Below are positions 25,168-25,575 of a DNA stretch of 30,818 nt, one piece after another. Each line of letters begins with the position of its first letter. Position 1 is the stretch's first letter. A program made the translations under genes and the position numbers. Location: positions 1 to 30,818 of IMG/VR virus record IMGVR_UViG_2565956711_000013; one strand, written 5' to 3'. The notes beneath the pieces were generated by a model that saw nothing but the letters and a program-made list of their open reading frames with translations, searched no databases and was not told the DNA's origin. This DNA comes from a virus (taxonomy: Duplodnaviria; Heunggongvirae; Uroviricota; Caudoviricetes).

Positions 25168-25425
25168 TCAAACACTACCCTGTTGATGATTTCTCAGAAG
25201 CGAACTTGACTCCCAAGGGAAACTCAACTTTCCGTAAAAACCACCAGCAGACATTCGTTCAATTTCCACAGAAATATCACTGAGCCGTTCTTCAAGCTCT
25301 GCTTTTTCTTTTACCAGACGGTTATAGCGGCTTAGATGAAGCTTTTGCTGCTCCAGCCAGTCTTCAAGCTGTTCAACAGTCATACCAGGGTTAAAAAAAT
25401 ATGGCTGCTGCTTTTCGCCCTGCAT
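25168..25425 (-). CDS. Hypothetical 85-aa protein between tR' and the lysis genes
   Basis: Track ORF 25168..25494 runs across the terminator; the internal ATG 25423-25425 has a GGAGG RBS; product MQGEKQQPYFFNPGMTVEQLEDW...; no family recognised. Confidence 0.45.
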   Translation of the reverse strand: MQGEKQQPYFFNPGMTVEQLEDWLEQQKLHLSRYNRLVKEKAELEERLSDISVEIERMSAGGFYGKLSFPWESSSLLRNHQQGSV

Positions 25426-25444
25426 TATTGACCTCCAGAAAAGC

Positions 25445-25466
25445 AAAAACCCCGCCGAAGCGAGGT
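25445..25466 (-). terminator. tR'-like rho-independent terminator downstream of Q
   Basis: Minus RNA CCUCGC-UUCG-GCGGGG (one G-U pair, UUCG tetraloop) followed by UUUUU (plus 25445-25449). Confidence 0.6.
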
Positions 25467-25506
25467 TTGTTATGATTTCGTTAACGGCAGACATACAAAG
25501 CCCATC

Positions 25507-25544
25507 GTTAGGAGAATCCTAACCAGATTTTTTGAAAAATGCAA
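25507..25544 (-). promoter_or_regulatory. Candidate late promoter (PR'-like) with overlapping inverted repeat
   Basis: Minus strand -35 TTGCAT (plus 25539-25544), 17-bp spacer, -10 TAGGAT (plus 25516-25521); inverted repeat gttagga-gaa-tcctaac at 25507-25523; lies between the Q stop and the terminator. Confidence 0.3.
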
Positions 25545-25575
25545 GAATCATGTCGCTATCTTCGGTGAAAATCAT

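Follow-up and report, generated by a model that had tools for sequence, protein, structure and literature searches.

A probable lambda-like late-gene switch with a terminator-linked first late gene in an SfV/ST64B-like lambdoid prophage

Introduction

How are the late genes behind the antiterminator gene Q switched on in a lambdoid prophage, and what is the small open reading frame (ORF) that sits between Q and the lysis genes? We addressed this question for a 30,818-nt stretch of virus DNA (IMG/VR record IMGVR_UViG_2565956711_000013, positions 1 to 30,818; hereafter the window), in which all features of the switch lie on the minus strand. The order on this strand is Q, an intergenic region of 150 nt, an ORF of 85 amino acids (aa), two overlapping holin genes, a GH19 endolysin gene and spanin genes. 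A first-pass annotation, made from the letters alone, had proposed a Q-dependent late promoter and a terminator in the intergenic region and had regarded the slot behind them as a site for cargo such as toxin genes. Our analysis makes it very likely that the region is the lambda-like late-gene switch of a lambdoid prophage of the SfV/ST64B-DT104-like kind, joined to a terminator-linked 85-aa first late gene.

The comparison drew on relatives of the window Q in IMG/VR. More than 590 were found, and the best 80, all at least 98% identical, were compared with the window; the resulting 81 loci contain 44 distinct promoter sequences. The block from Q to the lysis genes is 97.5-99.4% identical in Escherichia phage SKA5, in Salmonella phage 118970_sal3 and in about 100 complete E. 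coli genomes.

Q and the predicted late promoter follow the lambda layout

The Q gene (26328..25576, minus strand; TGA stop at 25578-25576) encodes 250 aa. Its product matched PF03589 (E = 9.5e-54; 180 bits against a cut-off of 26.7) and PHROG 127, and the lambda Q structures 7ubm and 7ubn matched it with E = 8.5e-38. PF03589 is the Q-lambda family (Yin et al., 2022, PMC9388147), and a Q-lambda cassette consists of Q, the promoter PR', a Q-binding element, a sigma-dependent pause element and a terminator (PMC9388147). A helix-turn-helix body and a zinc-ribbon arm characterize proteins of this family. Both halves of the window Q align to 7ubm, residues 1-120 with lambda Q 1-125 and residues 160-250 with lambda 117-207, and the alignment includes the CxxC...CxxC motifs. 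Between the two halves lie about 39 extra residues (about 121-159; window 25849-25968, minus strand) that are rich in CxxCxGxG motifs, and a match of Q to DnaJ_CXXCXGXG stayed below threshold. Judged from its sequence, the zinc arm, which contacts the Q-binding element in lambda, is probably longer in the window Q or binds two zinc ions.

The promoter lies 31 nt past the Q stop. On the minus strand the sequence behind this stop reads CATGAT-TC-TTGCAT-(17 nt)-TAGGAT-TCTCCT-AACGATGGG, and the lambda counterpart is CATGAT-A-TTGACT-(17 nt)-TAAATT-TGACTC-AACGATGGG. In lambda, AACGAT is a -10-like pause-inducing element, its discriminator is the GGG at +7 to +9, and pausing takes place at +16 (PMC5001585). 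The window element AACGATGGG is the same as this pause element plus discriminator, in sequence as well as in spacing. The predicted -35 hexamer TTGCAT (25539..25544) occupies the aligned position of lambda TTGACT, and the alignment also places the predicted -10 hexamer TAGGAT (25516..25521). The 17-nt spacer between them (25522..25538) is a candidate Q-binding element. It agrees with the lambda spacer in about 12 of its 17 bases, among them the TGG that adjoins the -10 hexamer, and it is well conserved, though much of this conservation may stem from recent common ancestry. AACGAT (+1 to +6) and GGG (+7 to +9) fill 25501..25509. By analogy with lambda PR', transcription would start at A25509 and the polymerase would pause near 25494/25493. 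The composite TTG-N20-TAnnAT-N6-AACGATGGG occurs once in the window and in none of 100 shuffles. The late promoter that had been proposed from the letters is thus borne out as a predicted site with PR' geometry; the pause element identical to that of lambda had been missed. We also considered the layout of phage 82 (pause at +25, extended -10-like element at +9 to +14, GCC at +15 to +17) and rejected it, because the window Q is homologous to lambda Q and the DNA matches the lambda layout.

The arrangement of Q, late promoter and terminator is conserved in the 81 loci. The proposed Q-dependent layout copies that of lambda PR' and is served by a Q of the Q-lambda family. Within it, variation is unevenly distributed. 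The TTG of the -35 hexamer is invariant and its positions 4-6 vary (TTGCTT, TTGCAA, TTGTGT). The -10 hexamer reads TAGGAT, TAAGAT, TAAAAT or TAGAAT, with changes at positions 3 and 4 only, so that TAnnAT is invariant. Changes in the pause element are confined to its positions 1, 3 and 4, and ATGGG is the same in every locus. The six bases that separate the -10 hexamer from +1 differ freely among relatives. In the candidate Q-binding element, 3 of 18 alignment columns are less than 90% conserved (44 unique relatives). Read from sequence, this is the pattern that would be expected of a working promoter and pause signal, though many of the loci are close relatives.

One locus (L065; IMG/VR UViG_2565956633_000004) deserves separate mention. 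About 75 nt past its Q stop, the lambda 6S sequence begins exactly after AACGATGGG. The locus is a natural recombinant in which an SfV-type Q and promoter are joined to the lambda 6S RNA, S and R region. Since the joint lies exactly at AACGATGGG, window-type and lambda promoters recombine at the shared pause element.

A terminator at a near-constant distance defines a predicted short RNA

Downstream of the pause element we found an intrinsic terminator, tR' (25441..25468, minus strand), with a 9-bp stem, a cUUCGg tetraloop and a U-rich tail. The stem pairs 25468..25460 with 25455..25447 (nine pairs including one G-U), the UUCG loop is closed by a C-G pair, and the tail reads TTGCTTTTCT. The fold has -13.1 kcal/mol (z -4.4 to -5.0), and none of 200 shuffles was as stable. 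Fold energy and shuffles therefore bear out the clean UUCG terminator of the first-pass annotation, although its limits of 25445-25466 were off by about 2 nt. Its estimate of about 130 bp from Q also held, since the Q stop and the end of the terminator T-run are about 135 bp apart.

In 71 of the 81 loci the end of the T-run falls at +63 to +65, despite 12 sequence clusters of the terminator segment. Most of the remaining 10 loci were mis-scored by the simple rule used, which took an earlier T-run. Terminator orthologues were compared by their individual folds; stem and loop lengths differ among them. The predicted short RNA runs from 25509 to about 25445-25441, is 65-69 nt long, and combines a weak 5' hairpin with the terminator hairpin. 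A search of 24900-25900 against Rfam at a permissive threshold returned only sub-threshold matches (istR, rsmX, isrJ and others), which were driven by the terminator and all fell well short of the gathering score. We further observed that the length of the short RNA appears constant among loci while its 3' half is freely exchanged, and that the 5' AACG(A) can pair with a downstream (U)CGUU both in the window RNA (25483-25509, minus strand) and in lambda (L005, 788-812).

The 85-aa ORF is a conserved gene behind the terminator

The 85-aa ORF (25168..25425, minus strand) is preceded by the ribosome-binding site (RBS) GGAGG (25432..25436), which begins about 5 nt past the terminator U-run and stands 6 nt before the ATG at 25425; the good RBS ascribed to the ORF is real. 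GGAGG, GGGAG, GGGGG or GGAG occurs at the same spacing in the cassettes of ST64B, Citrobacter, Enterobacter and Erwinia. Residues 1-84 of the protein matched positions 1-84 of the 85 positions of PHROG 3501 (E = 4.8e-54). Homologous proteins form 58 clusters, all from Enterobacterales. When homologues were aligned, 30 of 34 started at the same Met and 29 of 34 were 81-93 aa long; the other five were longer or shorter, mostly at the C-terminus. Pairwise comparisons of the window, ST64B, Citrobacter and Enterobacter gave ratios of nonsynonymous to synonymous substitution (dN/dS) of 0.03-0.15 for codons 1-50 and of 0.3-0.7 for codons 51-80. Conservation of the frame in related phages had been named beforehand as the finding on which the gene would stand or fall, and the frame is conserved in E. 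coli, Salmonella, Citrobacter, Enterobacter and Erwinia. By these sequence measures, the 85-aa ORF is a genuine gene under purifying selection.

The protein has an isoelectric point of 5.3, a grand average of hydropathy of -0.81 and no transmembrane segment. The structure model (pLDDT, predicted local distance difference test, 77) consists of a conserved N-terminal peptide QQPYFFNPGM, a long helix at 17-60 and a poorly defined tail. The homology and structure search that had been suggested for this protein yielded a family, PHROG 3501, and no fold match. A profile search of 1.84 billion representative proteins recovered only the narrow family itself, with 34 representatives, and in the literature we found nothing functional on sb50 or ECs1072. 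We read it as a small, acidic protein of the cytoplasm that is probably coiled-coil.

A moron carries its own promoter and its own terminator, so that it can be expressed while the prophage is repressed. The 85-aa gene lacks this arrangement: there is no promoter-like site between the terminator T-run and its RBS, and the gene lies downstream of a terminator, not upstream of one. It therefore does not qualify as a moron in its own right but travels together with the terminator in a single cassette. Because it stands behind the terminator with no intervening promoter, we regard it as the first late gene, whose product would be made only after antitermination.

Terminator, RBS and gene move as one cassette

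The borders of similarity define this cassette. Similarity to phages with the same Q (SfV, mEp460, Stx2c) stops about 15 nt before the hairpin, near +27, and similarity to ST64B, which has a different Q in front, sets in precisely with the hairpin. As a unit, terminator, RBS and ORF stand behind at least four different Q genes, namely behind the SfV-type Q and ST64B sb49, behind Q-lambda-family proteins of 260 aa and 271 aa (Enterobacter, Citrobacter), and behind PF06530-type Q proteins in Enterobacter and Erwinia. One Enterobacter locus has an opposite-strand gene between Q and the unit. On this sequence evidence, terminator, RBS and ORF enter the hypervariable slot between Q and lysis together, as a single recombining cassette. 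A scan of contigs with the alignment of the 85-aa family gave no confirmed related locus; the contexts came from contigs that encode homologues.

The slot itself is highly variable. Behind the same Q and promoter, the 81 loci hold 17 different contents, and the 85-aa gene is present in 20 of the loci. Others include SfV orf47 with a methyltransferase, a lipoprotein, an AraC-like regulator, cold-shock proteins, an IS (insertion sequence) element, and lambda S and R. One Stx2c phage carries, behind this same Q and promoter, genes for a lipoprotein, a methylase and two tRNAs, with stx2A 2.7 kb downstream. The view of the slot as a site for cargo and toxins is thus well founded, and the comparison of related prophages that had been called for showed that Q and promoter are kept while the terminator segment and the cargo are exchanged.

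Some loci record joints inside the cassette. Two of them (L049 and L050) share the terminator and GGAGG but continue into a different gene, which places the joint at the RBS. In a third (L029), an unrelated ORF is attached to roughly the first 22 codons of the 85-aa gene, a recombination joint within the cassette.

A convergent ECs1072-family gene accompanies the 85-aa gene elsewhere

In ST64B, Citrobacter, Enterobacter and Erwinia, the last 70-110 nt or so of the 85-aa gene are overlapped by an intact convergent gene of 144-153 aa, which is unannotated in ST64B. This gene is a member of the ECs1072 family (NF033230, PHROG 5286), for which intact homologues scored 175 bits against a cut-off of 70. 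Its structure model is confident and all-helical and has no informative structural neighbor. The window carries a remnant of this gene on the plus strand (25104..25283), which matched residues 83-143 of the intact ST64B copy by BLASTP (E = 5e-13). Only the C-terminal part is left, with an internal deletion of 22 aa; the 59-aa remnant had no PHROG match and falls short of a full-length ECs1072-family member. In three Erwinia-type contigs (L095-L097, 2027-2962), a 135-aa gene without a Pfam match lies on the same strand ahead of the ECs1072-family gene, so that in some phages the antisense unit facing the late operon may consist of two genes.

From this arrangement, the 85-aa and ECs1072-family genes may form a functional pair with reciprocal expression, of which the window would keep the late-expressed half. 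We tentatively consider it possible that the 85-aa protein binds and modulates another protein, with the convergently encoded ECs1072-family protein, its companion in most other phages, as prime candidate. Several points speak against such a partnership: conserved adjacency is its sole basis, the 85-aa gene is intact here without the partner, and a Serratia prophage has the ECs1072 gene without the 85-aa gene. A more specific version, which we think unlikely, is that terminator, 85-aa gene and convergent ECs1072 gene constitute a two-state cassette wired to the decision between lysogeny and lysis. The lysogen would make the ECs1072 protein from its own promoter, and this protein might be, for instance, an exclusion, abortive infection or toxin-like factor. 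Once Q has brought about antitermination, late transcription, running antisense through the ECs1072 gene, would silence it, and the 85-aa coiled-coil protein made at the same time would neutralize the ECs1072 protein. If this were true, the window would hold an orphaned antidote half.

Neighboring genes

Upstream of Q lie DUF968/HNH and KilA-N genes. The lysis cassette begins 80 nt past the 85-aa gene, with a first holin gene (Phage_holin_8; 24702..25088, minus strand; PF16931, E = 1.2e-34; PHROG 198), a second holin (24715..24434, minus strand; PF05449) and the GH19 endolysin (24434..23820, minus strand; domain match). The two holin genes belong to different families, PF16931 and PF05449, and overlap by 14 nt ahead of the endolysin (24434-25088, minus strand). 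Both holins recur together with the 85-aa gene in three Citrobacter loci, and the GH19 endolysin is also kept in two of these. Where the 85-aa gene ends, ahead of the holin, we noted a promoter-like TCAACA-17-AATAAT with an upstream TG (25158-25186, minus strand). It was the only hit of a consensus promoter scan, no more than chance would give (1.9 expected).

Alternative readings of the locus

The promoter region contains a perfect 7-3-7 inverted repeat (GTTAGGA-TTC-TCCTAAC, 25523..25507 in minus-strand reading), which the first-pass annotation had highlighted. Since it is perfect, overlaps both the -10 hexamer and the transcription start, and is followed on the plus strand by a T-run that gives it a terminator-like score, it could be a functional operator or an RNA or DNA hairpin that controls the late promoter. 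We consider this very improbable. The arms consist of the -10 hexamer plus one base (GTTAGGA) and of bases running into the pause element (TCCTAAC), and this overlap with the -10 hexamer and with the base that precedes the pause element accounts for their conservation. A second promoter allele, GGATAAGATTTTCCCAAC (GATAAGA...TCCCAAC), keeps only 4 of the 7 pairs and has no compensating change. This allele is found in about half of the loci whose Q is identical or at least 98% identical, it serves a Q reported as 100% identical (SfV type), and at one locus (L031) it occurs together with the 85-aa gene. Perfect repeats with 7-nt arms and loops of 3-8 nt are moreover frequent in the window (29, five of them with a 3-nt loop, when about 11 are expected from shuffles). 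The repeat does overlap the promoter as claimed, but on the sequence evidence it is an incidental by-product and not an element. A different role for the region would be that the main product in the lysogen is the RNA of about 65 nt between PR' and tR', acting in trans like StxS. In lambda and Stx phages PR' is active constitutively, and the RNA released at the terminator can serve as a small RNA that binds Hfq (StxS; PMC7547250). In the predicted window RNA, the U-tailed hairpin of the terminator may be joined by a second hairpin at the 5' end. The length of this RNA stays at +63 to +65 over many terminator variants, and pair 4-24 of the 5' hairpin (+1 to +27) shows one G-C to G-U to A-U series among relatives. 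However, the covariation is not significant (46 of 500 shuffles reached the observed score), taken by itself the 5' hairpin is no more stable than shuffled sequence (z -1.4), and the lambda 5' end also folds. No Rfam family was matched at threshold, the conserved 5' 27 nt are explained by their overlap with the pause and Q-loading region, and the 3' halves are swapped freely between loci. A regulatory RNA as main product is therefore rather unlikely, and it would be compatible with the switch that we favor.

The nature of the 85-aa gene can be questioned in two ways. If the true gene were the 108-aa ORF that starts at ATG 25494, the hairpin would be coding sequence and not a terminator. The frame is indeed open from 25494 to 25168, and the annotated proteins of ST64B and of one Kluyvera entry likewise have N-terminal extensions encoded across the hairpin. 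These extensions are, however, unrelated upstream of the hairpin (MSAVNEIIT in the window, MLGKAAPRW in ST64B, MKLIK in Kluyvera). DNA homology starts at the hairpin, and the window, ST64B, Citrobacter, Enterobacter and Erwinia share none upstream of it; therefore the 108-aa and 119-aa versions are best explained as artefacts of a frame that happens to be open across the terminator. The internal Met shared by 30 of the 34 aligned homologues, the conserved Shine-Dalgarno sequence before the internal ATG and the 85 positions of the PHROG profile point in the same direction, as do SfV-type loci, where the ATG at +16 opens a frame of merely 7 codons. The six orthologous hairpins all fold as terminators with differing stems. 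Almost no credence is left for the 108-aa gene, and the suspicion that the longer ORF call was wrong has been borne out, also by the Prokaryotic Genome Annotation Pipeline (PGAP) and the SKA5 record, which both annotate 85 aa. The second question is whether the 85-aa protein regulates lysis, as an antiholin-like timer of the adjacent holin cassette. In the window 80 nt separate the gene from the holins downstream of it, with which it would share a transcript. Yet the protein is acidic, hydrophilic and without a transmembrane segment, and in other phages an ECs1072 gene, with up to about 1 kb, lies between the 85-aa gene and the lysis genes. At least four unrelated lysis cassettes accompany the gene (holin_8/3_7 with GH19, P22 gp13-like holin, Phage_lysozyme, Peptidase_M15), and there are phages with the same holins and the same Q that lack it. 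A role as lysis timer is thus improbable.

Discussion

Taken together, we favor a lambda-like late-gene switch followed by a terminator-linked first late gene. Sigma-70 RNA polymerase would start at PR' (A25509). By analogy with lambda, the polymerase still carrying sigma-70 would re-bind the -10-like AACGAT at +1 to +6, with GGG at +7 to +9 as discriminator, and would pause near +16/+17. Without Q, transcription would end at the cUUCGg hairpin and release an RNA of about 65-69 nt, the presumed counterpart of lambda 6S RNA and StxS. Once Q has accumulated, it would bind the spacer DNA as its Q-binding element and load onto the paused polymerase. The Q-loaded polymerase may then pass the terminator and transcribe the 85-aa gene, the two holins, the GH19 endolysin, the spanins and the structural genes. 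With its partner gene deleted here, the 85-aa gene would be an orphaned half-cassette.

Some observations weigh against this interpretation. Where transcription would start, pause and end, and its dependence on Q, are all carried over from lambda by homology. The consensus promoter scan of the region did not call the PR' site, because the -35 hexamer TTGCAT matches the consensus at only 3 of 6 positions. Most relatives are more than 90% identical in the region, and part of the conservation thus reflects recent common descent. For the gene behind the switch, the 85-aa protein had no match in Pfam, NCBIfam or PADLOC, and a Foldseek search of its model against the PDB gave nothing better than E = 5.

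The regulatory design is of an already known kind and does not challenge current models. The region adds a well-documented lambda Q/PR' example from the widespread QuuQ/SfV-type Q lineage, in which the same Q and promoter drive stx2c. It also separates what is constrained in such a switch (TTG, TAnnAT, AACGATGGG and a terminator at about +65) from what is free (the hairpin sequence and all cargo). A small conserved cassette, the 85-aa gene with its ECs1072-family partner, can be placed in the toxin slot of lambdoid prophages of Enterobacterales, and a recurring annotation error is corrected, that of ST64B sb50 and of the 108-aa call in the window.

Comparison with known systems

The window shares with the late region of lambda a homologous Q, the spacing of -35, 17 nt, -10, 6 nt and AACGATGGG, spacers that are about 70% identical, the CATGAT upstream of the -35 hexamer, and an intrinsic terminator before the lysis genes. 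In contrast, lambda Q has 207 aa and the window Q 250 aa, with about 39 extra residues and additional CxxCxGxG motifs. The hexamers are TTGACT and TAAATT in lambda but TTGCAT and TAGGAT in the window, and the terminator lies at +194 in lambda and at about +65 here. Unlike lambda, the window has the 85-aa gene between terminator and holin. Like StxS and lambda 6S RNA, the predicted window RNA would be made from PR' to the first terminator; it has no sequence relation to either. While StxS is processed from 258 nt to 74 nt, the window RNA is predicted to have about 65-69 nt as transcribed.

Phages SfV, mEp460 and Stx2c (QuuQ/YdfT type) have a Q at least 98% identical to that of the window and the same promoter and pause element up to about +27. 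Their terminator lies at the same distance but differs in sequence, as does the cargo: in place of orf47 and methyltransferase, or of lipoprotein, methylase, tRNAs and stx2, the window carries the ST64B-like terminator and the 85-aa gene. This part corresponds to the sb50 region of Salmonella phage ST64B, where terminator, RBS and 85-aa gene have the same place behind Q and share about 80% DNA and 74% protein identity with the window. ST64B differs in its Q (sb49, 207 aa), its promoter and its P22-like holin, and it keeps an intact, unannotated convergent ECs1072-family gene of 144 aa where the window has a remnant. Finally, sb50 is annotated with 119 aa across the terminator, whereas the gene in the window has 85 aa and begins behind it.

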